Shown: positions 17,754 to 64,000 of the stretch, piece after piece
How the letters are laid out: every line of letters starts with the position of its first letter
Position numbering within the stretch: position 1 is the first letter of the stretch
Translations under genes and position numbers: made by a program
Assembly: GCA_026023565.1 (NCBI GenBank)
Contig: JAPETS010000026.1
Location: 186,001-250,000 of the forward strand
DNA length: 64,000 nucleotides
Direction: 5' to 3'
DNA from: Cirrosporium novae-zelandiae
Taxonomy: Eukaryota
Notes under the pieces: model-generated
Databases searched by the model: none
Told to the model about the DNA's origin: nothing
The model's input: only the letters and a program-made list of their open reading frames with translations

Positions 17754-19331
17754 GAGTTTTTGGGATGGGGGTTTTATGGTGGAAGTTCCGCCAAAGTAGA
17801 ATAATGATGGCCAGCCAAAATTAACAGCCTGGAAGAAACGGGGGGGTTAGCCGCCGCCGAATTTATCAGAATCCCCTAATAACTAGCGGATGGTTGATAT
17901 GGACTTTGTCAAAGTGTGCTCAAAAGTTCAGTGGTGAAGGTATGAAAAGGTTTCAATGAGCTTTTACAGCCAGGCAGGAATCAAATACAAATTAGATTAA
18001 AAAATAATCCAAAGAAACAGTATATTGGAGAATACAGAAAGATACGCCTTCGTACAAAAACACGTAGGATCATTCATCCGTTAGACCTTATATATATGAT
18101 TGTCAAAACTCGAAATTATTTGTAACATTCATACCAACTTAGTAACAGGAGCCAGTATAATCATTAACAATTCACCAAGTAAGGCAAAACAATGATGGCC
18201 ATCCCAAATTAATGGCCCAGAGGGAGAAATGTAAGGTTTTGCTGACGCTGGGTTGACCAGGTAGGATCCACTTAAAAAATAGCGTGTAGTCGGACCGTTG
18301 ACATTAATAGCAGTATTTGAGTGGATTGTTAGCCGAAATCTCCAAACTTATTTGGCCAAGTATTCTAACCACAGTAAACCATATCCCATCGTCACTATTC
18401 TTGAATTATTCACCTCTACTGACTTTTCTTGATTATTTGTCCAACGGAAGATTGTCAAATAATCTTTTTAGCAGAGGTATACAAGGGCCAATAGTTGTGG
18501 TTATATTATAAAATACTTTTTTGAAAAACTCGACTAATAATAATAATAGGTCGTTTATTTCCGGGCTTAGCGACAGAAGCCGAGCCGGTACGGATTTTGT
18601 TATAAAACTGATTATAGCAAACTTGATTGACTGCTCTGGAAATAGGACATCTATATAAGATCGAGTCTGCTTTGAGCCTGACTTATATGAAACCTCATTC
18701 CGTAGCTAGGATAAATTATCGCTGATCATACTCAGAGCTCTATATAATCTGGTGATAAATATTCTAGAATACAGCCTTTTATTGGTTATTGATTCTTTAA
18801 CAATATCTGATTTGATCGCGGAAATCCAATGTTCAATCTGCTGCAAAATTAAGAAAGCCAATATTTAGACCACGAAACGCTATTTGATACAAATAATATA
18901 CGACCTAAAGTAAATAAGGTGTACTATATCCGGAAAATCCTCCGAGGCCCTGCAACTAATGTGCAAAGAAACGAACTGAAATAAATTCCTAAAATATATC
19001 AAAAACTATTACTACTTAGCTCCTGCCTGAACCAAAAAAAGAGAAACAAGACGGAAAAATTAAAAAATTGAGGCTCTGATACCTTCATTTCTGGCAAACA
19101 CTCTATCAAGGCAACAAAACGACTGAACTAATTACAAACGCCTTGCCTGCAATTATTTACACCAAAGCCTTATACCTAGAAATTTGAATAATTTTATCTG
19201 CAAATCTAAAAAAACAAGTCCTACCTATTTTTTAAAATATATCATATATTGTTCTTGTATTTTTTATATAGGAATTGAGACTTATAAATATTCTTTGATA
19301 TTTATATTTGAAAGCAGGACGAATTAGTTAT

Positions 19332-21465
19332 ATGGCTGTGCTCCCTAAATTCACAGATATTCTTACTCCGATACCTTTCTACCTTCACATACTAATAAAT
19401 TAAAAATTAGAATTAGTTCAAACAGTTCAAAATAACGAGCAGTGATTCCAAGTATCGAGTTGACTCTCTATCTTGAAATAATTTCTAAATTATGCCGAAT
19501 AGCTCCTAATTCGATATCACTATCAATCTCAGGGAGTAATACAGACGTAGCCGTAAAAGGACTGAACAATTTTAAGACTTCTCCAAATAAAACGATACCG
19601 GAATTAAAAACACCGCTAAAAAGGAAATTGCAGCTTGACTATTCCCCCTTTCGCCGTCCACAGGGCTCAGTCGATTTCATATTTAAGTATCTAAAAATTG
19701 GTCAAAATCACTCTTCGACCTCAAATCAAAATATACCTGATCTCCTTCTTCAACCTGAAACTCGGCCTATTTCCTAAAAGGAGTTGATCAATAAAATTAA
19801 AAATATATCGCTTATTCTTTTAATTATAGTTTACGTATCTATCTAATCATATAAAAAAGTATATATACAGAACTAAATATAATCGAAAAACGATGTATTA
19901 ATATCGATAACGCGCAAACCATAGCTTTTCAGGTAAATAAACCTGGGCTTAACAACGAACAATAGCATATATTAATAATTCTTCATCGTACGCTCCTTGA
20001 TGAATATCACGATTTTTTTTTAGTATCCCAATATCCTTTTGCTGGTCCTGCTTTGCGCAAATTGGCAGCGCAATATAATATGCCAACCAAAATATAGTAT
20101 CGTGGAATATATCCGTTTCTAGAGGTTTTACGCCACAGATTACCCAAATCCTTAGACCATATACTGTCTTTTATTTATTTGGCCTATTCGATAATAGCAT
20201 TTTTATATGAAACGGTCCCTATTTATAAAGATACTTGGATTGAATATCTTGGAGATTTGGGACGTTATCGTATAACTATTGAGGATAATAATATTCATAA
20301 CAAAGAAATATGGACTAAAGTTTCACGTTTTTGGTATTCGAAAACCGCTAATAAGAACCCGAACGTTAACCGTTTTTACTATTATCTTGCTATTCTTGCA
20401 CGGCCTATCGTTTTACAGCAGTTTTATTTCTATACTCGATCTTTAATTTGCGTCTAACTATTCCAAGATACCAGAAAAAGCATCCTTATTTTCCTGAATC
20501 CAATATTGGAAGCCAACGAGCCAGCATATTATAGACTGCAACCTATTAAAACCATTTTTATTCGAATTCACGCCATTATATTTATATAAAAATCCGATAA
20601 CGCTTATACGGAAAATATTTCCCAATTTCCACAACTGTTTGACGATTATATCAATAAAGTTAGCGTTAAATTCAAAAAACAAGGTCCTTAGATCGCTGAT
20701 GCAAACCACGCCGTATTTTTCGAGTACGGGCTTTCTAATACTATATTCACACGAGCTTATAATAAATCTTTTGGCCATCAAACCGAATCAATTATTGAAA
20801 TCAAATCCCAACCAGATTCTATTCAACGATCCCTTGGAACAATTCAACGCGCTTCCAGACTAAATTTTAATATTTTTTCTCGTATTCTATTATATATAGG
20901 CGATAAAAACATCTATAATTATTTATATATCATTTTTATATTCTTTTACAGTCTTACTTCGGTTGAAAAAATTATAAAATTGATTGAAATAGATATTCCT
21001 TGGAATACTTTTGTATTTTACTTGAATACGTTGATGACTCCGGGAAAAAAATTTCTCGCCCGTACCCAGAAACCCGGCTTCCTTTTTCCGCAAAATGAAT
21101 TAGAGAGACTATTGCCTGAAAATTATATTATCCGAGACCAGATATAGGCACAATAGTATTTCCCAGGCGACTAGTTCGAAAAGAATGGAAAACCCAAAAT
21201 TGACGAAGAAGAACGTTCTTTTAATCTTCCTTCTATAACAGAACCTCGCCTGGAACGGATCCTATACCTAGCTTTCCGAATTGCCTCTTTCAAGAAATGG
21301 TTGATATACGATAATATTTTGAAACAGTTCTCGGCATATCATCTATTATCCGCCCAAGATACGCACGATTCTGATTCTTAATCCCAGTTTAGCGCCACCG
21401 TGGAAGGGGAAGATAATACCATTATGATAGGGACTGACGAACCTCAACAAGAAGCAGAAGTGTGA
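19332..21465 (+). pseudogene. RIP-inactivated Est1/SMG6-like DNA/RNA-binding domain gene
   Basis: LLQPETRPIS*, LNNEQ*, LHRTLLDEYHDFF, LYETVP..DTWIEYLGDLGRYR, YYYLAILARP; many stops; 5' end uncertain. Confidence 0.8.
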
Positions 21466-21999
21466 AGGCAGCGCTTAATACAGGCAGTGTGGTAGACTAG
21501 TGAGGCAAAGGAATATATAACTAATAGGTACAATGTGCTATTCGCATGCTAGACGCAAGTAATGATGATAGCTTTCGAAGTGCTCCTTCTGTAGATACAA
21601 AAGTCGAACGCTGCCTTGATGAATCAAGCAGCGTTCTCCTACATAAAGGTTTGGCCACGCGCCAAGCCTCGCCTATGCGCCTACGAAGCGCATATGCTTG
21701 GCACGCCGTTACAAGAAGGATCTATCACTCTTTCCCCTATAATTGATACCGGACATACAACCGCTCATATTAAATCAAGCCAGATAAGCATTGAAAAAGA
21801 ACCTCCTCGATCCCGAGATAACGATGGGAACGTGCCAATTATTACTCCGCTTACCATGTCCCGTTTGTATTCTTTCCCTTTTAACCGAGATAATAATTCG
21901 ACGGCAGTCCCACAACCATCCTCACTGGAAACAAGGTGTGATTCGAAGACAATCTCAGAATCCCCCCAAAAATAAGATCTTATCCTAATTTTATTAGCT

Positions 22000-24580
22000 T
22001 TTCAATATAGCGTCAAATCTGCAAGCATCCTTCTCCCCAAAGGGTGGAAACCTTGCTTAGAGTCATGTTGGACATTCTATCTCTCGGTTTTTTCAGGAGT
22101 TCGGCTTCGTACTAAAACTATAGGCGAAAGATACAAGAAACGAAGTATTATATTATCTATCGCTGATATTTAATCGGTATTACTACTTTTAATTAGATAA
22201 GATCGATGGAAATTTGTATTATTATTAAAGCTTCTATATATCATTATTGGAAGGCCGGGGACTGTAACACCCGAGCTCCGCAAATAATGTTCGATGAACC
22301 TCGGCAGGAATAAATCAATCGACTTTCCGTTAAACCAATAAATTAGGCTCTAGCTCCCGAGTAACGGGTAACAACGGCCGCAGATCGGATAATCCGTTCC
22401 GCGGGCAATTACCCGAATCTCGAGCAAATCAGAAACCATATTTAACCGAGATTTTCATTAATTCGCAAACCCTTTTTTAAGCTTCTTATACTTCTAGTTC
22501 CGTTTGGCTATCCGTTATATATTTTCTCAGTACTCTATTTCCTTACAGAGGCCTAGCAATCCTAGTATTATTACTATGATTTCCATCTCACTATCTTTCA
22601 GTCCTTAATTTTATATACAGTGGTACTGATCCCTGATATTGCTGTTTAATACAACAGAATATCGTGGTTATATTTCTTCTCTCTCGCTAACATATATTCT
22701 GTAGTATATAAGGAGTGAGCCTATTTTGCTATATAATAGTCTTTATCAATTTTATATATAATACAGCTTTAACTCTTTTATAAAATTGCTTCGATACGAA
22801 ATAATTGAGCAGCAATAATAGAAACTATAAACTCAATAATTTTCAATATAACTCTCCAACCGATGAACTCTGCTCCGCGTAGAATGATTGTTTGGGATTT
22901 TAATCCAAGTATATTTTATTTCTCTAACATTTCTACGCCAATTTCCCTGTCCGTTTATCCAATCCCGTATTCAGAAACTGATTTTTTCGTGAATACTGCG
23001 AATATAATAGCCCAGAATAATACTGTTATAGCAGAATATCAATCAATTAAAGAATCAATGATATTTATATCCCCAAACATCATTGGCGGAATTTTATAAA
23101 TATTCGAGACTAAGGACGCAGTAATTTATATTTCTCGACATCTACTATTGAAATACGAAAACCAATCTCCTATTTATTTAATTCCGCCGTAATAGAAGAC
23201 CTATTGGGCCTTTTATATCGACGGAATTTCGATCTATAGGGAAACTCAATTCAATACCGAGGTCGACATATTAATAAAAGTTATTTAATCTAAAATAAAG
23301 TCTGGGAGATCGGCTCCGCAACAAACTATAATAGTTCCACAAACCGATATTCCTTTCAATCCGATTATTCAGGACACTCAAAACTTTACCACCTTCACTC
23401 GATTTCAGAACGATAGAAGGCAAATAAAATATTACTATATATTCTTTAACTGTAATAGAAATTTTTCTCAAAAAACGAAACTGGAGATTCATATACGGGC
23501 GTATATTAGAGAAAGGCCGTATATATATTAACCAAATTTCAGATATTCTAGATCTGGATAGAATAGATTAACTATTCTTTTCCAGTTTTGTAGGGAGCCT
23601 TTTTGCGGACAACGGTTCTCCTAATCCGGAAATTTGAAAGTAAAGACTCTTTGACAGCTCCAAAAATAAAAATACTGCCACTAATCTATATATAATAGAC
23701 ACACGAAAAACGCTATACCGGTGAACGCTCTTATTTCTGTAGAATTTATAGAAAACGGTTTATTTAACGAGGTAATATTCGCGCCTATCATATCATACAC
23801 GAATAGCACAAACCTTTTATATACAAACTCGATAATTGCGGGAAATATTTCATTTAATTAGGCAATCTTAAAGTCATGGCTATCCTATCGAATTATATCC
23901 AGTTTCAAAAACTGACATCCATTGTAATTTTATCAGAACAGATTTTATATGACCATTCTTCAACGTCTCACTTCTAAATTTAAATCTATTAAACCAGGCG
24001 ATAGTCTCTCTGCCCAAAACAAAGAATTCTGGGAATATTTCGTTATATTTTACAAAAACAGCAACAAAGGTATCAAGGGCCGGGGGAAAAAATTGAACCG
24101 TGGAATTAATTAGATTAGATACAATATTAATAAAACTAAATATAATTTTCAACTGCTAGGCAAAATATTCTGCTTACAATACTATTTTACAGATTTGACA
24201 CTTCTTTAAGTGGGAGAGAAGAAGTCTGGAAGCAGAAATTCAAAAGGGAGTCGCGCGACTTTTTAGAAATCTTAGAAAACAGAAACCCTAGGAAAGTAGA
24301 AATCCCAGGATAATAGAAACCCCAAAGCAACAAAAACCTTAAGGCAGAAGAAGTCCTAGGGGGAACACGGAATTAGAAAACCCTTATTACAAATCGCATT
24401 CCTTGGAATACAGAAGAAGGGTGGGGTCAAAGAACCCCTACACCAAAGTGCTGCTCTTGGAGTACAGAAGAAAGGTAGGGCCACAAAGCCCTTGCTCCCA
24501 AATACTGTTCTTGGAGTATAGAAGAAAGGTGGGGTTAATATAAGCGCCGTTCTTGGAATATAGACGAAGGGTAGGGTCAT
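22000..24580 (-). pseudogene. RIP-inactivated gene of unknown family
   Basis: Long minus-strand frame segments punctuated by TAA/TGA/TAG compatible with C>T changes; includes ORF fragments 23271-23492 and 23880-24152. Confidence 0.5.
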
Positions 24581-24582
24581 TA
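24400..24582. repeat. Degenerate tandem repeat, 4 units (spacing 54, 54, 42 bp), core CTTGGARTAYAGAMGAARGGTRGGG
   Basis: Cores begin at 24402, 24456, 24510 and 24552. Confidence 0.8.
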
Positions 24583-25150
24583 TCTTAAAACGCTATATTT
24601 GGAGGCTAGGGGAAAAGGTCGGGTTATAGGAAAAGAGAATCCCTAAAAGAATAGAAAGCAAAACTGAGATTAGAAAATATTACGTGATTTGAAGGTGGGC
24701 GAAGCGCCTATAAAAAATTCTGCTCCAACCAGAGCGAGCGTATAGTAAATATTAAATAAAATAACATTATAAATAAAATATTACCGTAAATATAAAAGTT
24801 AGCCCAATAAAAATCTAAAAATAGTAAATCTTATTCTAAAACGCCGGCGTTTAAGTTGAATATAATATAGTTATTAGGCGGGACTTCAGTTGTAATACCT
24901 CCATTGAATAGTGGCCACCAGCTTTCAAAGTATTGGGTGATAATAGACCCCTATTCTGCTATTGCTTATGTAATACAAAATAGAATAAAATTATATTTTG
25001 ATTAAAACGGCACTTATGTAATTAATGAATGATCCACCACCAAAAATACGCCGTACTACTCTAAAACGGAAACCACTTAAGTACTTGCTACTAACCTCTG
25101 CATTATCGGCATATATGCCTGATCCTAAACTCTTTTACCACTCTTAGCTT

Positions 25151-27676
25151 ATGGCTGAGCTCTCTGTCAGTAATCTCGAGGCGATCAAAATTCTTCCGGT
25201 CAAAAACGGGTTTGCTCCTTTCTGTACTATATCGAAATTGAAATATTTTAACTCTTATGCCAGCCTTGAGGAGGCCATCGATCAAGTCTTACGCGACAAA
25301 TCCAGCTCAAATACGTAACAACTTCTCGGATTGACGATACAACTAATGAATTGTAGATGGGAAAAATTTAATACTCGATTTTGTATTAGTATTTCAAAAT
25401 CTTCCAGAAACCCGACCTTTAATTGGTGACTTTTCCAGACTTATCATCTAAATTATTTCGAACACGATTGATATCAATATTTTTGTTACTTTCCTGAAAT
25501 CTATCTTCATCGAAACTGAAGATACGGAAATATAGGCGGCTTTTATTTATCTTATTATCCAGATAAGGCCGGCTCCACAGCCAAAAACCCTTCCACTATC
25601 TCTTCTATTCTTCGTATCCTCCGTTCAGCAAACATTATAGTCCTTCAATACAAGCTAATTTACGAATATATCCGAATTTAGAGAATATATTAATTTTATA
25701 TTCAAATCGGAGATGAAAGATAATTTAATAATCGATCATCCGTATTTTTTTGATATATATTTCGGTGGTGTGACTCAGCTGAAGGAAATATCTCAAATAA
25801 TATTTGAAATATACAAGAATATAGAGCCTCCGTTATATACGGAAAATACCGGTTGGTTAGATTGGCCAAAAGGCTGTGCAGAAATAGAAATATTATACTG
25901 GTTCCAGAAATAGATCGATCAGTTTATTCTATTTGCAAAAAACCATAGTTTCCAATCTCTAAATTGCCGACGATATTTTATTATACCAAATAAACCAATA
26001 CATAGATCGGTCAGTAAACGAAAGCTAAATATAAATATCAGATATAATTTAAAAAATAGAGATCAAAATTGGCAAGAAAAGCCCGGAAATAATAAAAATG
26101 AGTTGAATACAAATTGGTCCAAGATTCTTGTATCTGGAAAACTGAAATCTAATCCCTAAAAAAACAATTATAATAGCACCTGGTTAGATCTTACTCGATA
26201 TATTCGAAAAATATTTAAAATATAGGATATACGCCGATTTACTCTTAGCTTTACTTTTTACGGATTATTACTGCGACTCTGGGAATTCGATCGACTAAAA
26301 AAAATCGTATCTTTATCGTTCGATATCCAGAAAAACGGTTTCAAATTAATATCTGTTATATTAGGTTATCTGTGGATGGATAATAAAGAACTGGGATTTG
26401 ATTTGAGTGTTTCCTGAGAAAACGACGCCAAATATCTAGAAATTTCAAAGAACAATCAAATAGAGCGGTTATATTTAGAAATATTGATAATACGTTATTC
26501 TGCGGTAGTCGGTCGAGCAACGATCTATTGGAAAGCTTATCTCAGTAAAAATAAAATATAGATTCTGGCAGTCAAGGATTCTTGGCAATACGAGGAACGA
26601 CCGGAGGAGGGTCTGTTATTGAAGAAAGTAACTGAACTCGGAGTAATTAATATAGTACGATATTATTGTTATGAAACTGTGTACGTAGAAGGTGCTATTG
26701 ACGATATCCGCCATAATATACGAAAAAAGTTAAAAGAAGAAGATAGGAGGAGTATATTCCGACAGCGACGGACGATCAAATCCGAAACTATTATAGGATC
26801 TATCACGCCTGGAAATTCAATGATAGAGAGATTCAAAGGCAACAACAGCAGCAGAAACAGGAATATCACCCGAAAACGGTTATTAAGCTCGCTCCAAACA
26901 TCTATACCACCGCCCCTAAAACGTTCATATTCAATCTCTCCGGTCAAATAAGACCAAGCCCGATTACAACAAAATCGTGTCTATCGTCGTATAGTGATGC
27001 GTGATATTGGGAAGAGTATCTATTTAGCCAGCTCTCGAGTGGTGACACTTAAAGGACTACTGGGAGCAATTAGAGGTAAGTACATAAAAAATATTTCATA
27101 GCTTCACTGATGGGTTTAGGACATGAATCACTGTTGGATATCCATATTCTTCATCGCGATATATCGGCTGGCAATATTATACTGAATAAGGCAGAGGATG
27201 ACGGGTTTTTGATTGATCTTGATTTTGCCGTTAAGATCGATCACAAAAAAATATCTGGAGCACCTAATAAAACCGGCACAAAGATCTTTATAACGATAGG
27301 CGTTTTTGACGGTAAACAGTATAGCTTCCTATATAATCTGGAATCATTTTTCTGGATCTTATTCTGGATGTGTATCCACTGCACCGGCCCGGATGGATAG
27401 AATAGGAAAACACGATTCGAAAACTGGAATTATAAACCGGTCGATGAGCTTGTAAGAGAGAAAGCTGGTCTAGCAACGCGCGTAAGGCAATTCGTATTAG
27501 TAATGGATGAATATATTACAGATTACTGCCAGTCTTTGGTTCTATGGTTTAATAAGCTATATGATGTTGTTTTTCCCAACCATCAGATACGTGCGAGTGA
27601 AGATCGAAATTTATATTCTGCGATAAAAATTGTCCTTCAGCAGGCTCTAGATAACCCAGAGGTTCAGGCTCAATAA
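25151..27676 (+). pseudogene. RIP-inactivated FunK1 (fungal-type) protein kinase
   Basis: GWLDWPKG, ILVSGKLKSNP, LRLWEFDRL, VKDSWQYEERPEEG, LHRDISAGNII, GFLIDLDFA, TGTKIF; multiple premature stops. Confidence 0.9.
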
Positions 27677-28399
27677 GTTACGTGAGCCCGATCAGATATG
27701 ATTATACAGTGACTACTATAATCTAAGATCTTTAATTAATTTGATTAAACTTATTGTTCGATTTCTGACACCGGAGCCCAGCCAATTTAATATATTCGGG
27801 ATTTAATTTTAACTATATAATCGTAGTGGAATGGGTCTTTGATAAAGAAATGATGACGAAGATTAGTAGACTTAGCTTTCTAGAGGTTCTTTGTAAATTT
27901 CACACGTCTTTTTTATCACCTGCCCTCTTGCTGGATTATAATTTTAGGTGTTAGCGAATACTGTTTTCCTATTCATCTTGCCTATCCTGCTCTACTCTAT
28001 AGCTCTCTCAAAGCCTATCGATACCTCGAAGGTCTCAGCGACTGAAGACGAGTTGACGCATTGAATATTATAATTTTGAGGGACATTTTGCATACCATAG
28101 GGAACAGAACGCCCATGGCGAACCACATCCCCGGTGGGATGCGCTACCGCGTGGTGATTATCGCCCATGTGGGAGGCAAATCCCATGAAGGTTGTTATTT
28201 CTTATGGGATTAGGTGTCCTGTGGGATCTGTAGCCCATGGGGAATCAAAATCCCATGAGGGACCCCATAAATTATAGGACGGGGTCCTAATTGTGATGTC
28301 CCATTGAATAATACCCACTAGCTGATGATGACAGTATTTTACTAGTATCGTTCCATTTCTATTGAGATTTAGATACTAGGGTTCAGTTCATTCATAAGC

Positions 28400-29920: not shown

Positions 29921-30479
29921 TCAAGCCCTTTCCCGTCCATCCACACGGACAATCACTGGAGAGACATCTAAAGTAGGAGGTAAAACAACTTTAGACCTTC
30001 TCAAATTCCTTGTAGCTTCATCTGATCTTATTTTCTCGATATTTAAATGAGGGAGCCTAGCACGTTTTCCCGACCGGCATTCCTCCTTTTCTTCCGTCTC
30101 ATTCATCGGCGCGGTCAATTTCAACAGCTCAGTGGTGTTTTGGGTAGGCGAGGATAATGTCTCGAAATCTTTCGGTCCGAACCGTGTTGGGACTGGATAA
30201 ACCTTGTTCTGTGTTTAACGGTTAACGTGAGTTGGATCAGCATATATTTCATTGGGAACATACGAGGCCGTCATCCGGTGGAGGCCATTGAGGGCAGTCA
30301 GAGGAATTGTATACGTAGTATCTCTCATTCCTATGAATAACAAGGTAGACTTCAGCTTCACACATGAGTTTCATCTCATGGGCTTTCTTAAGTAAGTTGA
30401 TCTTTCTCCTTCGGAATCTTTCACGGCCCCGTTTTTCGCTAAGGTGTTCAGGCAGTTTGGCTGGCTTAATGCTGAACAT
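29921..30479 (-). CDS. MADS-box (SRF-like) domain protein, 2 exons
   Basis: RERFRRRKINLLKKAHEMKLMCEAEVYLVI...YVYNS...WPP; intron ~30262-30210 leads into ORF 29921. Confidence 0.8.
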
Positions 30480-30801
30480 GTTGTAAAATGGATGTGATAT
30501 GATATTCAAGTTCCATGGGCTATTGCCTTCTTAAAAGTTTATGGCTACTTTCTGGTGTCGGTTGGCGCCTCTGTTATGCGCCGACAATCTTTATACTCAC
30601 CACCCCGTCTACACTCACACCCACTGTTTATGCGCCAGGTAGCGCTTGATTTATTATCGGTAACTCATCGCTGCAACTAAAAATAAATTATATTTTTCAT
30701 TATACTTGGAGCTGAAAGCACTCCCTGGTCTAGGGGGTAACTACCTGAGTATTTATACGTTACTTTGCCTATATTTCCTAGCTTACTTAGATACTGCAAC
30801 G

Positions 30802-32525
30802 ATGGAGCCAACTCAAATTTATGGCATCGTTGTCGGGGCAATTTTGTTAAATCTTTTCGCATTTACTATGGCCAGGCGGGTCCTGCGCTTTCTTAATTCT
30901 CATTTTTACTACCGACTCCTTCATCATATTATATATCCAGTCATTTTCCGGCGCCACAAATTTGTAGCTCCTATGACTCGATTTCGGATCTTCTTACTAT
31001 TACTATATTGGTTTGGGACTCTTGCATGCAATATTACTGGTGTCCGATCTCGACGTGAAGCTGCTACACGTGCTGGAACAATATCCGTGATACACTTGGT
31101 CCCTTTGTTATTTAGCCATCGTCTCAGTTTTGCGGCTGACCTTATTGGGCTTTCCATTCGTACTTATGCCGATGTACATTGCACATGGGGCATCATGGCC
31201 TTTGTTCAAGCCTTAGCACATGTCATTATTATGCTTCAAGATACGGCCTTCAGTCTTAAAAGCCCGACCGGCTTATATGGTTTCATTGTAAGTTTTCCCA
31301 CCTCATATACACACAGCTAATACTGCCACCAGGCTGCACTGACTCTAGCTGTCATTTTGATCCTGTCTTTGCCACCAATACGGAATCGCTTCCATGAATT
31401 TTTCATGATAAGCCATGTGACATTTATTGTACTGTTGATCTATTCTATATGGCGCCATTTTTCTACCAACAAAGCCTTTGCATTATTGTATATTTTTATT
31501 GCATGCGCTCTATTTTCTTTTACCACTAGCCTTCAAGTAGCCCGTTTTATATTTCGAAATTTAGTCCCTGGAAAGCCGTCAACTACGGCCATGATCGAAT
31601 CAAAGGGAGACGCTCTCAGGGTGACTCTACAGCTTCCGCGACCATGGAGAGTTCGAGCTGGCCAGCATATTTACCTTTGGGTACCTGGGGTTGATGGTAT
31701 ATGGTCGATTTTCCAAAGTCATCCATTCTCAATTGCTTGGTGGAGGGAAGACTTTACCGGCAATGCATTTTCTGTGGCCCTTCTTATCAAACCAAAGTCT
31801 GGTCTTACTAGTAAATTCCTCGAGCATATTGGGACTAAAACAACAGCTTGGATTGACGGCCCTTACGGAAAGCCTCCTAGCTGGGGGAAATATGGTTGTG
31901 TAGTTTTGTTCGCAACCGGTATCGGTATTGCTGCGCAAATGCCATACATCAAAGAGCTTCTATTGTCCTATCACCGTGGTCATGTTCATACTCGGCATGT
32001 TATACTCATTTGGGAGCTGGAAGCTGAGTGTACGATATTCCTAGTAGGTGGTATTGACAACTGGTTAACTTCGAAGTAGGTCAGCAAGATTGGGTCGCTG
32101 AATGGATGGACGATTTCCTTCAGAGTGATAAATCCTCACAAATTTTAAAAATATCACTTTATATCGCTAAAGGGTTCAACAATCCTCAAAGTGCGTATGG
32201 GGGAGCAGTGAGATATGGTTCCAAAGAACGACTCGCTAAATTATATGGCATCGCCGATCTGAAATTGGTTCTGAGGAATCAGCTAGCAGAGCATCACGGT
32301 CGGACACTTGTAATTGGTAATATATCTCCTTCAAAATCTATGGTATAGATCTCTAATAATCATACAGTCTCTGCGGAGAATTTACGACGTGATAAAATGA
32401 GAGAGGAGATAAACAAGCTTAAACACGATCAAATCGAGCTTTTGGAATTGGATTTTCAGCCTAATGAACAAGGAATATCGCGGGCTTCGAAGAAAGGAAT
32501 TGTTCAGCATGAAGGAGTAATTTGA
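30802..32525 (+). CDS. Ferric reductase / NADPH-oxidase-like transmembrane flavocytochrome (FRE), 4 exons
   Basis: TM helices with paired His; FAD motif QSHPFSI, DGPYG, NADPH motif ATGIGIAAQ, terminal ELDFQP; introns ~31288, ~32029, ~32318. Confidence 0.9.
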
Positions 32526-32542
32526 TAGAATTCCAGTGGAAG

Positions 32543-32592
32543 AGAGGTCCCCTGTAAGAGCAGGTCGCTTTCTGAGGCAGGTCCTCCTTACT
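32543..32592 (+). promoter_or_regulatory. 17-bp-periodic AGGTC(C) motif array 1
   Basis: AGGTC at 32545, 32562 and 32579; TATAAAT at 32611. Confidence 0.6.
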
Positions 32593-32694
32593 AGATTACA
32601 CTAGCCTACCTATAAATTCTAGAGCGTAGCATTCACGATGACCATATCACATCAATTTTCTGCAGGAACAGAATCTATTTGTGTCTAAACTTCT

Positions 32695-33551
32695 ATGATG
32701 AATTATTGGAATTGTTTTTATTTCTTGTGGGCTTTTTGTAGCTCCATAAGGCTGGCATCTTCACACTCCTGGATAGAGGACCTTGTCCAAACGCACGAAA
32801 TAAACGAGAGTACCTTGGTGGGCCACATCGGATATTCCCGCGGTTACGGTAGACACCATATGTGCATTTTCTTTCTTTCTCTTGTTAACCTTACTCCTTT
32901 TTAGTGCCACGAACTATTCTTCAAGGCGACGCAAGAGTTCCTAATCCTAAATTCAGCGATGCTGCTATGACTTATTTGCTTCCCCCAAATGAACGTCTAA
33001 GTAATTTCATCCTTAGTACTGATCCAATCTGCATGACTAGTCAACAAAACTTCAACGAAACGGCAAACAGCCCAACCTTGCGTGCACAAGCCGGGTCGTT
33101 CATCGTCCTACGTTATCAAGAAAACGGCCACGTTACCCTTCCATCGCTTGGGAAACCGCCACGAGCCGGTCGAACCTTTGTATATGGAACAACACAGGCA
33201 GAGTCGTCTTTTACCTTGAAGGAAATACATAAAGTCTGGAGAAGAGGTTCTAGTGATTCTCAGAAAGGAGTTTTGCTATCCGAGCAGGAATTTGATGATG
33301 GGAGATGCTTTCAAGTAAACGAATCAGAAGAATCGAAAAAGCGCCAGAAAGTAGCGGGTTATCCTATCGATCCTATCCAAGGTTCTGATCTTTGGTGTCG
33401 GAATGTGATTAAGCTACCGGAAAATTTAAAGGAAGAAGATGTTTATACCCTTTATTGGGTTTGGGATTGGCCTACGGTGCCTGGTACAGCAGGAGCTCCA
33501 GAGGGGAAGGTGGAGATTTATACTACTTGTATTGATATTCTGATTATCTGA
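32695..33551 (+). CDS. Secreted protein with predicted mature N-terminal His (DUF7492-like, LPMO-like)
   Basis: Signal peptide then HSWIEDL; GYSRGY, LRYQENGHVTLP, FDDGRCFQ, YTLYWVWDWPT, EIYTTCIDI; intron ~32849-32904. Confidence 0.8.
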
Positions 33552-33593
33552 AACTAAACTTGTATAGGCTAATGTCATGAAATCTAATGTATA

Positions 33594-34010
33594 TTAAATC
33601 ATGATTGGTATTTCCGCTGTTTCCGCATCCAGATCAATACCCCAATACTCCGAGAACCGCTTTTCAGATGCTGCCACTTTTTCGGACATATCTTGTAAAG
33701 CATACTGAAGAATTTCAAAAGCTCTCGTCGTTTTTTCATGTAATTGTAAAAGAGCTGCTCTAACTTCTTGATGGTACACAATCTCTTGACGTAGAGATCC
33801 AACTTCGCGAACTAGTTCCTCCAGCCTTGAATTGGGAGTACCAGTAGGAGTATCCTTTGCCTTTTGCAATGCGCGAGGTGACATTTGAAGGGTAGAAGTG
33901 GTTCCCCCATGAGTTGCAATAAGGTGGTCGAGGCTTGTAACCTCTACAGGGTTTCCACGTTGTGGTCTAGGAGGGTAGCGTCTTTTATCTTGATACTCCA
34001 CAGTAGACAT
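33594..34010 (-). CDS. Small coiled-coil hypothetical protein
   Basis: 138-aa ORF with heptad region RLEELVREVGSLRQEI. Confidence 0.7.
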   Translation of the reverse strand: MSTVEYQDKRRYPPRPQRGNPVEVTSLDHLIATHGGTTSTLQMSPRALQKAKDTPTGTPNSRLEELVREVGSLRQEIVYHQEVRAALLQLHEKTTRAFEILQYALQDMSEKVAASEKRFSEYWGIDLDAETAEIPIMI

Positions 34011-34199
34011 TGAGTTTAATACTGTAATTATGAGTAGACGAAAATATATTAATATATCTCATATCAGAATGCTCACCGAAATTTATTAATAATTTTATAG
34101 TTTTAAGTAATCTTTTAAGTCTTTTGGTTCGTAACTGTTAGGTGAATAATGATGTTCGAGGCGGAGGTATAGAGGTAAATTAAAGGCTTTAGTAATTAC

Positions 34200-34250
34200 T
34201 GTCCTAGGTGGATGTCCTCCGTAAAGAGAGGTCCTGCTTTTAGGAGACCC
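34200..34250 (+). promoter_or_regulatory. 17-bp-periodic GTCCT motif array 2, in a divergent promoter
   Basis: GTCCT at 34214 and 34231 (also at 34201). Confidence 0.55.
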
Positions 34251-34323
34251 TGGCACTTTAAATAGCAGCACGAAAGCACTCTGTTAGTATAACTAAACAC
34301 CGAGATTAATTTTTAGAATAATT

Positions 34324-35392
34324 ATGGACCAAACTCGAAGACTGACAACATTTCCTCGAACGCAAGATTATGTTGCTCCGTCGGCAGCTCCATTATCCCT
34401 AGAATCTGCCACCCCTAAACCTCTTCATAAGCGCCCACGTGATTCTCCTCATTTTCATCTACCTATCAAGCAACCATTCCCCCAACACCTACATTACCAA
34501 ACTCCTTGGCACCATTTCCAACCATTTCTAAAGTACAATCATAAAGGACCTGCTATTATGGTTTATCAAAGTAACGACGCAATGGCTGTGAAATCTATGA
34601 AAATAACAAGGGGGTGGCAAGAGAGTGCTTTCAAAACAGTTCAACGCCCATCGCATCCGAACCTTGTTCCCCTTGAATGCGCATATCTGGATAAAGATAC
34701 GGTATACTTTGTCTATGATCACATGGACATCTCTCTCGCTCAACTTCAAGCTTCGCCAAAAGGAAAGCTCGAGTCATTTGAGATTGCAATTATCTGTAGA
34801 GAAGCAAGATATTTTCACCCCAGATTTAAAAACATTAAAGGCTAATCGATCCATAGGTCCTAGCTGGTATCAACTACATTCATACTGAGTTGAAAATCCA
34901 GCACGGAGCGATTGTTGCCGATAATGTTCTCTTGAATCGAGATGGAAATATCAAAATAGGTAGGATGGGTTATCACTAGCGGAACACTGCTCACGTTGAA
35001 TATAGCGAACATAGGTGAAAGTATGCTTAATGGCAAAAGCGTCGATGATCGAAGAAAAGATCACCGAGCCCTCGGTTTGATCATGGTGCAACTTATGGAA
35101 CCTCGAACACATATTACTGACCCCACTACACTCAAATTACAGCATCCGGAGAGATGGGATTCGCAAATACGCGATTTCCTAATGCAAACAGAGCTAGCTA
35201 CTTCCAGATCCCTTGCTGAGGTTAGTCTTTTTATCTTGAATTGGGACTTAACTAACACTAACTTAGCATGAATTTCTTGAAAGAGGGAAGGCATCCCAGT
35301 GGTTTAGACAACATGTGTATATCACTGAATCGACAATGTTTAGAGACTGGGAATTACTTGATTCGGATATAAAGGATATTCAGTTTGAATAG
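34324..35392 (+). CDS. Protein-kinase-fold pseudokinase, 4 exons
   Basis: MAVK, SHPNLVPL, ICRE/VLAGINYIH, HGAIVADNVLL, KIANIG; first intron is GC-AG (~34804-34856). Confidence 0.8.
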
Positions 35393-35866
35393 AGTACTTT
35401 GTTTTTTTTTCCATGTTGACAATACTATATATTTCCCAAAATATCCCGTGAGTATTTTTTATTCATTTCTCTTGTCCAAACCTCGGTAGCATCTTCAATT
35501 CCAAGAATGTCCATCGGCTTAACTGCGACGCTACCCGTAGCGGCTCGTAATCCGAAAACAAGATGCTGCGTAATAAGAGAAAGGACAAAGGCTATGCCTT
35601 CTAACTATATGCAAAAAAATCTCCCCGAGGGGTGTCATGCTCCGTGAAAAATTAAAAATCGAAGATTCTCACCTGCCCCTCAACTATTAATTTTAGCAGC
35701 CCCTAAGCGTGCGATAGGAGTTAAGCGCTGGATGACAAGTCCAGAGTGATGACATGACCTTGTCTACGCGGCGGTTGGGCATAGCCCTGGGCATTAAAGA
35801 ACCACCTTTCCCTTCCTTCACCTACTACTCTCTAGTCATTTCTTTCATTGCTACAAATTCATCAAT

Positions 35867-37642
35867 ATGGTCTCTCCATCATTACTTACTATTCCCCTAG
35901 AGGTGATGGATAGCATCACAATATATGTCGGTTCAAATTTATTCTTTGTATACTGTTAATATATACTAACTTCGTGTACTATAGCTCCCACATCGTGACC
36001 TTTTTCGCCTGAATCTTTCCTGTAAGGTCCTCCATTACATAACCCAGCCTCGACTACTCGCCACTGCATATGTCGACATTCCTGGACCCTGGCTTGATTT
36101 ACAAGGCAAGAAACGATACCTGCGCACTATAAAACACCTCGAAAGGAACTTGCTATCGGTCAGAACCATGGTTGTACGGGGCAATTCATCTTCTCGATTT
36201 TATGGGTCGCGAAGAACTGAAGAATGGGAAGAAGCGCATCTAGACACGTTCTGTGATACTCTCAAAATACTACCAAACTTAAAGTCCTTCAAGTGAGTTA
36301 TATATTGCTAGATATTGGAGCTCGTTCATAGGTTTCTAGGTTTTGTTTTTTTGAAAATGCAATAACAATGGACTGGCTTTGCGAGGTGTGGGCTACGTTA
36401 TCCAAGTCAAAGAGACTTACTTTTATGGAGACCAATTTCCCCCGTGAAATCGAGAACACCCCATTCGGATTTCCCAAGCTTCGCTCTCTGAAACTTTTCG
36501 TTGGTCTTCGGTCACATGGATCGTTGCCTCTTATGCCAGAGCTCGCACAGCTAGAAGTAGAGTTTCATAGGGACTATACTTTGGACAGGATCAGTCACCA
36601 GCTTCGCGGATTCATCAACTTCAGTCAAATGCCAAAGCTTTTGAGTCTCTATTTAGGAAATATCTGGTTCTTCTCTCAGATTCTGGATACGAGGCCTTCT
36701 AATACGCTCAAAGAACTTATCTTCAAAGGTTGCAGGAACATCTCTACAACCTCGGTCCGTAAATTTTCTTCAGTTCTAAGAAATCTTGTCGTAGTAGCTT
36801 GCTCCTTGGAGCCAACTCGATCGGAAATGGTTCATCTTCCTTATCTTCAGACTTTGGAATTACTTGATTCTCAAGAAGGCGGTGATGACTGTTTGCTGAA
36901 ATATTTGAACTGTCCTCAACTTATTGACCTCAACTTAAAATGCAGATTTGATCAACGGGAAATTGAGTTCGCGACCTCATTATTCATTGAGAGGTGCAAA
37001 CAGTTGAAGGCTTTATTTCTCGCCCTTCACCATGAGTCTTCGAAATCTTACGCCATGTCCGCCGATCTATTCCTTAGCCTCCTGGGACTAGATGATCTCC
37101 ACTATCTCGCTTTTTTGAACGAACATATGATAAGTTGGCGCATGCTAGCTCGGTTGATGGAGGGACGACAAAATTTGGTCGGACTAAGTTTAAGCATAAG
37201 CCTAAACACCTCTGATCCTTCCAGTCAGTGCGTTAACGTAAGTTGTTGTGTATGTGCCTATGGGGATCTGTGAAACTAATAGATTTGCCTTTAGTTACAA
37301 AATATGAAATTGATGTATAGTCCGTATCTTCGAAACCTGTGGCTAAGGACTAGCGAAGTGGGTGTAGAGGGAGAAATTGCGGAACTTCTAATTTGTGACT
37401 GGATAAATGCTAGTAATAGCAGTCAAATACCACCAGCTTTACAGCAGATTATTGTTGAGGGGCAGGTATATAGCATTGAGCAGTTCAAGGCAGGCAACAC
37501 GTTGACACTCGGTCTCAACTGGCTAGTCCAGTTACCTCCAAGCACTATCTTCTGGTGGATGAGGTGTATTGTTCATGAAGATCTTACAGAGCGTTTACCA
37601 CTTGGTTGGGAAATAGAAGGGAGGCCGTCTTGGGAGTTGTAA
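35867..37642 (+). CDS. F-box protein with LRR-like repeats
   Basis: LLTIPLEVMDSITIYLPHRDLFRLNLSCK followed by LxxLxL repeats; three introns. Confidence 0.75.
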
Positions 37643-38043
37643 TTCCAAATTACTGTTTCTGTTACGCTTGTATTGGCAAGGAGGAAATCCGGCTGGTGGT
37701 CCACAATCATATATTATAAGCAAGAATGGTAAAATGTTTTAGTATAGTCCTTCGTCATAGTTGTATATACGCCGTGATAATTATGAAGACCATTTTTATA
37801 TAACTGTTATCATAAAAATTACTTCAATACTTCAATAATTCTATTCAACCCAATCTAGTCTAGCAGACATACTATGACAAAACCACTTCATTATTAGGCG
37901 TAGAAGATCGAAAGTTCAACGTGATTTTACAACGATTCAACGAAGGAGTGGGATGAACAATCGCAGCTTCGCAGATCAATTTGGTTTTATCCTAAATCTA
38001 TTTGGTAAACTAGATACATAGAGTTACAAGGAAAATAACAAAA

Positions 38044-39001
38044 TCAAATCGCAAAAAATATAAAAGCCATTAAAACCTCCCCCAGCAAAATATTTAGAGA
38101 TGGTATCATTTGAATAACCGTATCAGAAGTGGATGTAATGGTTGCAGTAGAAATAGTTGCTGTAGGTGGAGAAGGGACCGTAGGCTTTCTCCAAGCCCCA
38201 GTTGAAGTTGCAGTTGAGCTTCTACTCAGCATTGAAGAACCTGTGCCGGTTGTAAAGTGTGGTCCTGAAGAAGCAATAAGTGCAGAACTACCAGTCGTAT
38301 ATATTAAGGTCCGGGTTGATGCAATAGTACTACCATTGTATCCAATTGTACAAGAAATATCCGGAACCGTGACTCTAGGTGTCTGAGCATCAGCATTGGT
38401 AATAAAACGACTCATTCCGTCCCCTGGGTTAATAGCAAAGATCATGCCAGCATGACAATGCGAGATAGGAATTTGTTGGTGACAGAAAAACCATCGAGGC
38501 TTTGTGGACTGGACGGAAAAAAAAGCGAACATGCCCGTCTCATTTCGAGGATCGAAAAACACGAACCCAGTATCGAAGCCGTCTTTGAGTGGAGTGCATG
38601 GGTGGTCAATTGTTGACTGAGTCAAACTATGGTTGCCAGATAAAAAGTGGAAAACAATAGTATCGTTTATTTCGGCGCGAATATAATTAGGCTCGAACTG
38701 AAGGTGGCCGCCTGCAGCTACTTCAATAGTGTGGATCGCTGTTGTTGCTGTTGTTGCTGTTGTAGAAGCTGTAGAAGCTGTGGAAGCTGTGGAAGTTGTG
38801 GGGGTTGTGGGGGCTGAGTGACCAATGATAATATCGAGCCCTCCGCTTATGAACACAGATACGTCTTTTATTGATGTTATTGCCGTGGTGACTGCCGAGG
38901 GCCTACTTAATAGTAAATAAATTTTCTATCATATTTTCTTAAACTTACTTCGCAAAAGCTAGGACGAAAGGAATACCGAGAGCGTACAGGAGAGCCAGCA
39001 T
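38044..39001 (-). CDS. Secreted, probably GPI-anchored cupredoxin with Ser/Thr-rich stalk
   Basis: Exon 1 signal peptide MLALLYALGIPFVLA, intron ~38948-38903; NHSLTQS and WFFC-x7-HCHAGM type-1 Cu ligands; hydrophobic C-terminus. Confidence 0.85.
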
Positions 39002-39159
39002 CCTGTTCTGAATTGTTAAGTTGTTGGTGGGTGCACTCAAGGTTGAAATCGGAGAAGCGCAGCTTTTGAACTGCGGTTTGATTTACGATGGCAAGCAATG
39101 CTTTGTAGTAGGCGCGCGAATGAAACCTTGGAAACAGGATTATATTTTTAGGGTCTTTA

Positions 39160-39230
39160 AACAGGGGTCCTGTCTAAATGGAGGTCCTGCTTAAGAAGAG
39201 GTCCTGTTTAGGAAGAGGTCCTCTTGGAAG
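39160..39230 (+). promoter_or_regulatory. 17-bp-periodic GGTCCT motif array 3 (4 units), in a divergent promoter
   Basis: GTCC at 39167, 39184, 39201 and 39218; TATATAA at ~39262. Confidence 0.7.
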
Positions 39231-39325
39231 CCTTTTGTAGAGTTGAAGTTCATAAATTTACTATATAATGATTATCTAGTACGTCATAAAAAATTCAAAC
39301 ACTGTACAGTTTAACCTCACTGGAT

Positions 39326-42300
39326 ATGGGAAAATACGATCAATGGCAAAGGCCTCAGTTGCAGGCTGAACTCAGAAGCCGTCACATGCCTGCAACAGGT
39401 GCGACTGCTACTCTTGTTAAACGTCTTAGCGAAGCGGACATAACAGACAAATATGCATCAGAAAGATATAGCAAACTCAAAAAAACGGAATTACAGGATG
39501 AACTCAAAAATCGTGGATTAATTGTAACCGGCAATAAGCCAATTCTAATTCAACGTCTTATTGATTCAGATGAGAAAGAAGAATTAGTCGACGAGGATGA
39601 GCCGAACTATCCTAGTCCTCCACTGCCACAGCAACCTCCGCCTCCTCCACTTCCACAGCAACCTCCTCCACTTCCACAGCAACCTCCTCCACTTCCACAG
39701 CAACTTCCATTTCCACAACAACCTCCTCCACTTCCACAGCAACTTCCACTTCCACAGCAACCTCTTCCACCTCCACAACAACCTCCTCCACTTCCACAGC
39801 AACTTCCACTTCCACAGCAACCTCTTCCACTTCCACAGCAACTTCCATTTCCACAGCAACCTCTTCCACCTCCACAACAACCCCCCCCACTTCCACAGCA
39901 ACTTCCACCTCCACAACAACCTCCTCTTCCACAGCGTGTTCCGCAGCCACAACCTCCGCGACAATCTCCTCAAAAATACCCTATTCCACAACTTTCACAA
40001 ACGGATTTTCTTTCACAGACAAGTATACCAAATATCAAATATACAGTTGAACAAGAACTACAGAAAAATGGATTTTCACAATCAATACCGATTGTTGAAA
40101 TGGACATTGATCAACTCGGGCCGACTGGAACGAAACGAAAGCCCGAATCTGAAGAATCTGAAAAATCTAGTAAAGCACATAAATTACTTAAACTCTCAGG
40201 TAAAACACCATCGCGGCAGCATCAAATAGAAATTCAACAAGCCGCCGCCCAACAAGCCGCCGCCCAACAAGCTGCCGCCCAGCAAGCCGCTTCTGAACAA
40301 GCTGCCGCCCAACAAGCTGCTGCCCAACAAGCCGCCGCCCAACAAGCCGCCGCCCAACAAGCTGCTGCCCAGCAAGCCGCTTCAGAACAAGCCGCTTCAG
40401 AACAAGCCGCTTCAGAACAAGCCGCCGCCCAACCAAAGACACCGTCAACAAATAATAAAATATTCAAAGACCTATCAGCACGATGTAATGAATATATGGC
40501 AAAATATGGAAAGACTAGGCTTGAGTTTAGTGGTTATTTACTTCAAAGTATTCTTAACTCTGAAGAAATTAAAAAAATACTTAAAAAAGTGGACCTGCAA
40601 GGAAACAGTACTGACGAGGATGTTCGTGGATGCCAATTTTTTATTCTCGGAAAAGAGAATTTTGACCTTCTTACATCAACGTTTGAAGATGTTGCAATAG
40701 ATGATAATCGATTTCCAAACATAGATATAGCTGCACTAGATTCGGCCAAAAATATGTACCGTTATATACATCCAGATAAATTCAATGCGAATGAAGTCTT
40801 TTTAAAAGAAAAAGCGAATGAAGCTACAAAAAGTGAGTGGTATCCTCGAAGAGAATTAATATTTACTAACGTGTTATAGTTCTTCATAAAGTTAGGGATA
40901 TCTTATTTAAACATGTTACGGATCATTACGCATTAGATGGGATCTTAATTCCAGAAGCTGATCCTATTCCAAAATACCCCGCTTATCTTCAAAACCTACC
41001 ACCGCAAGGCACACAAATGACGTTATACCAAACAAACTATCAAACACTTACAGATGAAATGCATGCCATGTTTAGAGATCCCTACAACAATACTGTTACA
41101 CAAAACCTTCACCAGAAAATCGAAATTATAAATAGTACAATCTACCACACGAATAAAGAGCTAAAGATTCAAGAAATCTTCGGGTTAATTGATGAATCTA
41201 AAATAGTGCAAGCGTTTAGAGTCAACCAGCGGACTCACATGGAAGACAAGAAGCTCTGTTTTGATGATATCGATATAGAGGCAGCGGCTAACGACATTCG
41301 TGATCTTTGTCTTCAAAAAGACTATCCACTGACCTGGATCCCTGCTAAGGATCTAAATGCTCCTATACTTTCTTTGAAAGATGAGTTTTTGCAACATCCC
41401 CATTCAAATTTACCGTCAAAGCAAACCCTATATAATCAGTCTTCTGCGATGACCTCTGGAACTTTTTGGGCTTATCCTTATAAATCCAAACATCAAGAAG
41501 GATATTTACAACCTATCTTACAGTCATATGAGCAGAACGTGGAATATCGGAAGGGTTTTACTATTGACGGTTTCCCAATACTTGCTTATCGTAAGATAGG
41601 CAGGTTAGGATTTCAATTTCTTGTAAAGTTTAGTGAAAGGTATTTTGCATTGTTGCCTGAACGAGAATGTGGAGGGATTTGGGTTCGAGATCTCAATGTT
41701 CCAATGGACGAAAATGGCAACGTCAACGAAAGTGAAGCTGTGGAAAAGATTGGGAAATATGCGGATGAAGCTTCCAAGCGTGCCGCAGAAATTCGTGCTT
41801 CTAAACCCAGACTGATTGGTATTGCACAGGCACCTCGTTCTATGCCGCCCAGGTATTCCGTAAGATATGGCGACCTACCATCAAGAATGAATGAACCAGT
41901 GGTTGCTATATGTCTTTCATGGAGTGGAAATCAGTGGTGGCTATACAAAACTTGTTTAAACGCCATTTTAGGTGAAGGAGTTGTCAGCGCTTATATTAGA
42001 AGTTGCACCATCCCAACTAAAGCGCTCCCATCTTCAGCGCCTCAAGGGTTGATACAATATCCATCGCAAGGCTTGGAGGCTATTCCTCGATATAACTTAC
42101 GGGCACTTCCAGAACCAAATCCTGTTCAGGACCGGCAACGTGTTTTACTGTCGTTTCCGACTTCCGAGCCACAACAACAAACGAATAGTTATTACGGACC
42201 TTTTAATTCAACCGCATCGTTCAACCAGCAGTCTCAGTACGGTTCGCCTCCAGTACCTCTGGCACCTCCAGTATCCACCCAACAGCCTCAATATGATTCG

Positions 42301-42504
42301 CCTCCAGCGCCTCCAGTGCCCACCCAATACAGCTCATCTCCAGCACCTCCAGTATCCACCCGACAGCCTCAATACAGTTCGCCTTCAGCGCCTCCAGTGC
42401 CTTCAGTACCTTTAGTATCCACCCAACAGCCTCAATACGGTTCGCCTCCACTATCCAACCAACAACCTCAACACGGTTTAGCCACTGGCTCTACTACCCT
42501 TTAG
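39326..42504 (+). CDS. Large protein: 2 SAP domains, Pro/Gln and QQAAA repeats, J-domain-like HPDK region, unknown domain, Pro-rich tail
   Basis: LQAELRSRHMPATG..LVKRL and ELQDELKNRGLIVTGNKPILIQRL; intron ~40833-40879 joins ORFs 39326 and 41017 in frame. Confidence 0.85.
39620..39930 (+). repeat. Coding minisatellite (LPQQPPP / LPQQLP units)
   Basis: CTTCCACAGCAAC-based units. Confidence 0.9.
40235..40432 (+). repeat. 15-bp coding tandem repeat (QQAAA/EQAAS) x~13
   Basis: CAACAAGCCGCCGCC units. Confidence 0.9.
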
Positions 42505-50511: not shown

Positions 50512-51249
50512 GGCTCGAAAGAAGAGGAGGTTAATTAGATATCGGCCCTAAGTTCATTTGAAGAAAATTAATGACTTGCTGTGACCCTAGGGTAGTGAAG
50601 AGTGATAAATTAAAGAATGTTGGACTGACTCTTTTTCTTTTTCCGTTTCAACTATGATCACTTGGACTTATTTTATAAAAAGTATGCAATTAGGGAGGTA
50701 ATAAATAGGCTAATAGTAAAAGGATTGTTGATCCAGAAACCTATGTTAGTTTCCTATTTGAAAAGAAATGTATTGCCAGAGAAATAATACAAAATTCCAA
50801 GTTAGCCTGTGGTATGTCCCATGGGCCCCTTGGATATATGGAAGAGAATGAAATCAAATAGGTAGATTCTCCGAGAAGTGGTCTCGAGAAAAGATCTTGA
50901 GGTTAACATGAAAACCAGGTTGGGTTCGATTCCCAAGTGATTGGTCACTCTGGTATCAGTGTTCTTCTAACAGATAATGCTCACTAGCTTTTGAAGGAAG
51001 CGGTAAAAAGGAACGTATCACAAAAGTGTATCGTATACGTGTAACTCATGCATACATTATCAATCCTATACTACTATATACATGCAGAGTTGCATCACTA
51101 GTCTCAATTAAACAAACTTTGAGGAGACTCTTGATTCGAATTTGAAAAGCCTCTCCGCACGTTAGTGCATACTGGAATTCTGTTTTAAGTGGGCCCAGAT
51201 TCTATCTGGGAGACTTGTGGTTGTCAGCCAAGATGTACACTTCAAGGGA

Positions 51250-63937: not shown

Positions 63938-64000
63938 CTGGTTGTTGCTCTGATGACATTTTTTTGGTGAAAGCGTGAGACATATTTGGTGGGGCATCTT

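Follow-up and report, generated by a model that had tools for sequence, protein, structure and literature searches.

Starships, giant mobile elements of fungi, carry auxiliary genes that have been described as DUF3723, FRE (ferric reductase), PLP and NLR (Gluck-Thaler et al. 2022, PMC9156397; PMC11162782). The roles of these genes, and the way in which the elements cross between fungi, have been called a major open question. We analysed 64,000 nucleotides of Cirrosporium novae-zelandiae (contig JAPETS010000026.1, positions 186,001 to 250,000), a stretch called the window below, in which eight genes lie between positions 29,921 and 42,504 (Table 1). The five genes on the left (29,921-35,394) very probably represent a recurrent set linked to Starships. 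It is composed of two divergent pairs, MADS/FRE and coiled-coil/pseudokinase, and of a gene for a tail-less, secreted DUF7492 protein with a predicted fold of lytic polysaccharide monooxygenases (LPMOs). Our best reading is that this set is an overlooked extension of the Starship auxiliary genes. As they do, it adjoins captains, PLP, DUF3723 and NLRs, and its order and copy number vary (PMC9156397; PMC11162782). Its FRE relatives include gene models fused to an exon of a patatin locus, which is a further likeness. To the known auxiliary genes it adds the MADS gene, the coiled-coil/pseudokinase pair and the LPMO-fold protein. No match for monooxygenase, MADS or kinase is found in the main text of PMC9156397, although SRF genes and the unannotated groups mp102_11362 and mp102_11342 appear in its supplement.

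A second system of interest is cwr-1/cwr-2 of Neurospora (PMC9550227), where a polysaccharide monooxygenase (PMO)-domain protein has a possible role in cell contact. CWR-1 differs from our case in being a chitin-active PMO, encoded at a fixed chromosomal locus together with a linked partner, and no equivalent is apparent at the window. The initial annotation drew an analogy to Neurospora cell fusion. This analogy is weakened, because catalysis is reported not to be the main factor in recognition by CWR-1 (PMC9550227).

The five-gene set and its surroundings

Recurrence was assessed in one metagenome scan, from which the best 80 of 126 DUF7492 relatives were kept with flanks of up to 10 kb. The 80 loci come mostly from one series of contig accessions and 25 of them are short-tailed, i.e. 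they lack the Ser/Thr-rich extension of tailed copies, as does the copy in the window. At 80% identity they collapse into 30 clusters, 9 short-tailed and 21 tailed (tail status of L036, which meets a contig end, and of L064, which has a frameshift, was assigned from trees). Homologues of window genes were found as follows: MADS at 15 of the 80 loci, pseudokinase at 13, FRE at 11 and coiled-coil at 8. Counted by module cluster (n=7), the coiled-coil gene is found in 5, MADS and pseudokinase in 4 each and FRE in 3. The cupredoxin-like, F-box and SAP-J genes have no match at threshold in any of the 80 loci. All eight genes had initially been proposed as one self-contained module; co-location elsewhere stands for MADS, FRE, DUF7492, coiled-coil and pseudokinase and fails for the other three genes, so the eight-gene unit is not borne out.

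Presence of the set goes along with the form of DUF7492. Set genes flank DUF7492 in 7 of 9 short-tailed clusters, compared with none of 21 tailed ones. The two short-tailed clusters without set genes are contigs of 2.6 and 4.6 kb, and for clusters with a locus of at least 9 kb the proportions are 6/6 and 0/18. Fisher's test of the flanking contrast gives p of about 1e-5, a value that overstates independence because the clusters are related and most loci share an accession series. In a tree of 56 DUF7492 rows (a chosen subset of 26 short and 30 tailed copies, computed by a quick method and with many weak branches) the tail label needs 3 changes, compared with 18.7 when shuffled. One short-tailed clade, which includes L036, nests among tailed copies.

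Gene order of the window is partly repeated elsewhere. L036 has MADS(-)FRE(+)DUF(+), while L019 and L021 have DUF(+)CC(-)PK(+), CC and PK being the coiled-coil and pseudokinase genes. L076 carries all five set genes in decayed form, and other orders are found in L005/L007/L044 and in the L043 group. In intact pairs all five genes are under purifying selection, with ratios of nonsynonymous to synonymous substitution rates (dN/dS) of 0-0.32. For DUF7492 the ratio is about 1 in L044 (5 stops) and in L078, 0.43 in L062, and 0.16-0.18 in group E, where it was computed on the core exon; intron read-through gave a spurious value of about 0.5.

The link to Starships suggested by the initial annotation is upheld by the genes beside homologous loci and by one published region. 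Domains were scanned in 14 loci, covering 146 of 274 open reading frames (ORFs). In L005, L007, L044 and L051 a captain (PF11917) is no more than 4 kb away from DUF7492; near DUF7492 there is also a patatin gene in L066, while L019, L020 and L062 have NLRs of NACHT or NB-ARC type. Named fungi with short-tailed DUF7492 are Macrophomina phaseolina (three records, one of them grouping with tailed copies), Delphinella strobiligena and Bathelium mastoideum. The Delphinella DUF7492 protein (P0276, locus tag 389871) is a row of the published Starship-like region delstr1|h37, which also has a captain, PLP, DUF3723, MADS and FRE (PMC9156397 supplement). Its group label, mp102_11362, has 109 occurrences, 34 of them in the cross-species table and including named Starships; of its members only the Delphinella protein has been confirmed to be DUF7492, the group is possibly mixed, and six other locus tags do not appear in that supplement. 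According to the same supplement, the Starship Voyager has FRE with an SRF gene close by, as well as a divergent pair of a kinase and a small gene. Judging by layout only, this pair may be homologous to the pseudokinase/coiled-coil pair of the window.

Some further genes were seen along with the Starship-linked loci. In the L043 group, DUF7492 has immediately upstream of it an ORF of 840 aa without Pfam match (L045:6561-9080), and a gene of similar size and orientation precedes DUF7492 in delstr1|h37 (PMC9156397 supplement). At 2246-2647 (+) the window has an ORF with a Myb domain, immediately preceded by an in-frame stop (2243-2245). As MYB/SANT genes have been described from that end of Starships which lies opposite the captain (PMC12256816), this ORF could mark the far edge of an element; if it does, a minus-strand captain would be expected beyond base 64,000. 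A related ankyrin gene occurs near the set in three clusters (L005:8712-9197, L019:8602-9090, L076:15653-16651) and a Sir2 gene recurs near it in two; neither has a match in the window.

Several facts weigh against a coherent Starship set. Firstly, FRE is the Starship auxiliary gene present in the window; no captain, PLP or NLR match was obtained within its 64 kb (50 scanned ORFs, plus tblastn using PLP and NLR ORFs of the loci as queries), and DUF3723 had no match among the same 50 ORFs. Secondly, the order of the set varies among loci, two of its copies (L044 and L076) are broken, and the well-flanked clusters L005/L007 and L019 have no FRE up to 10 kb from DUF7492, which makes the pairing of FRE and LPMO a loose one. 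Thirdly, the published tables have 321 occurrences of the FRE label against 109 of mp102_11362 (PMC9156397), FRE is reported missing from Gaeumannomyces Starships, and HEPHAESTUS is reported to transfer without known auxiliary genes. Finally, the loci represent mostly one accession series and the best 80 of 126 matches.

The variable order, the partial sets and the missing FRE also favour the main rival explanation, namely co-carriage without coupling. Here the five genes would be long-term residents of Starships, each kept for its own benefit, and sharing a vehicle would be all that links them. This explanation is in agreement with MADS, kinase, F-box and DnaJ domains being listed as general Starship-like cargo, and no shared promoter motif was found for the set. 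It fits less well with the head-to-head pairs, which persist across DUF7492 copies only 38-64% identical. Moreover, the short L036 clade lies among tailed copies and yet has MADS-FRE adjoining, pointing to a second recruitment into this setting. We regard simple co-carriage as doubtful, though it is the strongest of the competing explanations.

In the window pseudokinase HGA replaces HRD and NIG replaces DFG, thus both catalytic Asp residues are missing. The DFG Asp is substituted in 13 of 13 homologues, of which those in L019 and L021 retain HGD. The coiled-coil protein matched no known family in family searches, and its homologues in the loci reach E values down to 1e-33. A degenerate kinase has a place in another imaginable scenario, where DUF7492 would be a CWR-1-like surface signal read by NLRs of the element and the pseudokinase a decoy or adaptor, altering fusion or incompatibility. 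Apart from the substituted DFG Asp, the CWR-1 precedent (PMC9550227) and the NLR or HET genes near several loci are consistent with such recognition. Selection is, however, purifying rather than diversifying (dN/dS 0.11-0.30) and no CWR-2-like membrane partner recurs, so we hold this scenario to be very unlikely.

DUF7492 and its candidate electron donor

With the LPMO superfamily (AA9, AA10, AA11, AA13 and AA15, also AA16 and X325) DUF7492 shares a beta-sandwich that aligns from His1 onward, a second His and an E/Q-x-Y motif. The DUF7492 protein of the window has a hydrophobic leader or signal peptide, followed by His24, which would be His1 of the mature protein (cleavage before it is presumed), His127 and Glu255-x-Tyr257. 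PF24320 is its sole match among the family profiles searched. Among full-length homologues, 37 of 38 tail-less and 187 of 196 tailed ones have the N-terminal His motif. In an alignment of 139 DUF7492 sequences H122 and Y251 are present in all 139, and position 249 is E or Q in all of them. This numbering is that of P0002, a tail-less paralogue 58% identical to the window protein, named for the same organism and encoded on another contig.

The LPMO fold was modelled on P0002, not on the window copy. Its alignment-based model has a predicted local distance difference test score (pLDDT) of 93.7, as against 33 for a single-sequence fold. At Z>=8 there are 18 PDB representatives, every one of them an LPMO or fusolin, with identities of 12-18%. 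Z values are moderate, the best match having Z 10.1 with root-mean-square deviation 3.6 over 159 aligned residues, and nearly all alignments at Z>=8 start at model residue 21, the His. Foldseek and Atlas results concur. Fold, conserved His1, second His and E/Q-x-Y together bear out the LPMO-like call of the initial annotation. What sets DUF7492 apart from superfamily chains is an identity of only 9-18% and the lack of a match among PDB sequences, where its profile found nothing at E up to 10. Because the fold matches LPMOs and the sequence search of PDB is nevertheless empty, DUF7492 looks like a superfamily member outside the solved families. It looks like an unclassified family in ascomycetes, with 739 representatives at 50% identity.

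The term DUF7492 is absent from the literature searched, and no title or abstract listed there links it to Starships; the search did not reach subscription papers, supplements on bioRxiv or most of those in PMC. Genes of the set may already be catalogued under other labels, for example CRG/ENOG503P5Q6 or LPMO16, the latter a putative group corresponding to An07g08250 (PMC6950343). Annotation also masks the His brace of DUF7492. The public gene model P0001 (window 32080-33551) joins FRE residues 396-482 to DUF7492 exon 2, which hides the signal peptide and His1, and several tail-less database proteins begin at an internal Met.

FREs reduce Cu(II)/Fe(III), and NADPH oxidases (NOX) have His-119 as their signature (PMC3591440). 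The window FRE shares the four haem histidines (His126/140/190/204), and its FAD- and NADPH-binding motifs (HPFSI, GPYG, GIGIA) are intact. It differs from NOX in having no His-119 and in the span between histidines of the fifth transmembrane segment, 14 residues compared with 13 in NOX2. His-119 is missing in 20 of 20 sequences, i.e. the window FRE and 19 homologues. For this reason the protein is FRE-like, a metal reductase being likelier than a source of reactive oxygen species, and the original label "NOX-like" is disfavoured.

The signature of FRE rather than NOX type also suits an alternative in which the genes are a kit for metal acquisition. FRE would serve uptake by reducing Cu(II)/Fe(III), and DUF7492 would be a non-catalytic His-brace copper chaperone like X325/Bim1. 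Iron acquisition has been proposed for Starship FREs (PMC9156397), and X325 appears in the P0002 fold list at Z 7.8. Nevertheless, AA9/10/11/15 enzymes score higher in that list, the Glu/Gln-x-Tyr motif seen in catalytic LPMOs (PMC5320794) is retained in 139 of 139 DUF7492 sequences, and no copper or iron permease occurs among the scanned ORFs of module loci. We consider a pure metal kit unlikely.

Neighbouring genes and the rest of the window

The eight gene models are stop-free spliced ORFs with canonical introns, except one GC-AG. They are separated by gaps of 42-472 bp and include three divergent pairs with spacers of 322, 313 and 324 bp. The eighth of them, the coiled-coil gene, was absent from the title list of the initial annotation. 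Pfam supports the MADS, FRE, DUF7492 and SAP assignments; kinase matches are weak. To the left lies an AT-richer block (18-28 kb), in which ORFs of at least 150 aa cover 5% of sequence, compared with 56-71% of the eight-gene stretch, and GC content is 35%, compared with 42%. Tight packing of intact genes next to a block of dead ones, as described initially, is thus confirmed.

Table 1. Positions of the eight genes and of the adjoining block within the window
Feature	Position	Strand	Remarks
MADS/SRF-type transcription factor	29921..30479	-	167 aa, 1 intron, PF00319; recurrent set
Ferric reductase (FRE) metalloreductase	30802..32525	+	525 aa, 3 introns, PF01794 + PF08022; recurrent set
Tail-less secreted DUF7492 protein	32695..33551	+	266 aa, PF24320 E 4e-73; anchor of recurrent set
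Predicted coiled-coil protein, no known family	33594..34010	-	138 aa, divergent from pseudokinase; recurrent set
Pseudokinase	34324..35394	+	307 aa, 3 introns, first GC-AG; recurrent set
F-box/LRR-like gene	35867..37642	+	537 aa; neighbour outside recurrent set
Cupredoxin-like secreted protein	38044..39001	-	303 aa; neighbour outside recurrent set
SAP-J: SAP-domain protein, P/Q repeats, HPD J-like segment	39326..42504	+	1043 aa, PF02037; probably loose cargo
Decayed AT-richer block with dead gene copies	18001..28000		context

The three genes on the right are variable neighbours. The cupredoxin-like protein has His109, Cys158, His166 and Met171, which we take to be a cupredoxin ligand pattern (searches of Pfam, NCBIfam and PDB sequences left it unconfirmed). 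It also has an S/T-rich linker and a hydrophobic C-terminus resembling a glycosylphosphatidylinositol (GPI) signal, a label not confirmed by profile searches. Similarly, we assume an F-box in the 537-aa gene, for which Pfam gave no match above cut-off, and a J-domain in SAP-J, where HPD is present and profile searches gave no confirmation. Both the F-box and J motifs are interrupted by introns, and queries with single exons found no profile match. A DnaJ-domain gene lies 8 kb from the recurrent set in L019 (571-2328); SAP-J has HPD and one 18-residue motif in common with it, at a phmmer E of 0.11. The PMC9156397 supplement contains 17 occurrences of PF00226 and no match for cupredoxin terms, a weak negative given that Pfam also misses the cupredoxin of the window.

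According to the initial annotation, electrons could pass from FRE through the cupredoxin to the LPMO within the eight-gene module. In its favour are the intactness and tight packing of the eight genes, the four putative ligands retained by the cupredoxin-like gene, and a short motif shared by three spacers, among them that between cupredoxin and SAP-J. Yet module loci are not enriched in this motif, and the absence of cupredoxin, F-box and SAP-J genes extends to the 25 short-tailed loci. We find this model highly improbable, and the cupredoxin relay is not borne out.

The motif RGGTCCY forms clusters in spacers of the window, at 32540-32585, 34225-34240, 39160-39225, 28255-28290 and 58660-58820. 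Between cupredoxin and SAP-J there are four copies with a 17-bp period, and at 58.7 kb there are 12-bp tandem copies in inverted arrangement. It was rejected as a promoter signal shared by the set: 28 copies compared with 19 expected in the window are driven by tandem repeats, and module loci show no enrichment.

Adjoining the MADS gene is an unassigned gene (28373-29630, +) with no Pfam match and no relative in the 80 loci. The dead block contains its copy at 19972-21336 (37-39% identity, 6 stops), plus fungal-kinase fragments. On the other side, 42813-44450 (-) encodes an ABC half-transporter. Nine loci of one cluster (L065, L067-L072, L074, L075) have a close relative (E about 1e-125) at a distance of about 7 kb from the tailed DUF7492, possibly by coincidence. 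PF17667 fungal-kinase fragments and ankyrin, Tc5 HTH and C2H2 genes (26562-27400, 49711-50547, 59282-60253, 62134-62763) are typical content of accessory regions.

A possible role of the set

We favour a loosely ordered set which travels with Starships or their derelicts and has a role in surface redox or in the wall; we give this reading a probability of roughly 0.45. If the five genes are indeed a recurrent set linked to Starships, the odds that they have a coupled surface-redox function are about even.

LPMOs need reduced copper. Based on the enzyme families involved, FRE would take electrons from NADPH and deliver them across the membrane to Cu(II)/Fe(III). The secreted His-brace DUF7492 would bind copper and, once reduced, oxidise or loosen wall polysaccharide. 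Since it is without the Ser/Thr-rich tail of the core copy, the tail-less form would diffuse instead of staying tethered. At the cell surface the set may act on both metal redox and the wall. With less assurance, MADS and the pseudokinase/coiled-coil pair might regulate the set, and the benefit might go to the element, for example at hyphal contact. It is by inference that we couple FRE to the LPMO and assign the set a putative role in transfer. The most far-reaching version, a surface kit of Starships, seems rather unlikely to us. Here an unclassified enzyme of LPMO fold, recruited from a core fungal gene by tail loss on at least two occasions, reduced by FRE and controlled by MADS and the pseudokinase/coiled-coil pair, would loosen walls at hyphal contact and help the element to move between fungi.

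The secreted, Starship-tied subfamily of LPMO fold is a concrete target for deletion and biochemistry. Tail-less DUF7492 and the coiled-coil/pseudokinase pair offer new markers for derelict elements that have no captain. Finally, the recurrent set provides a testable lead on what Starships carry for their own spread.

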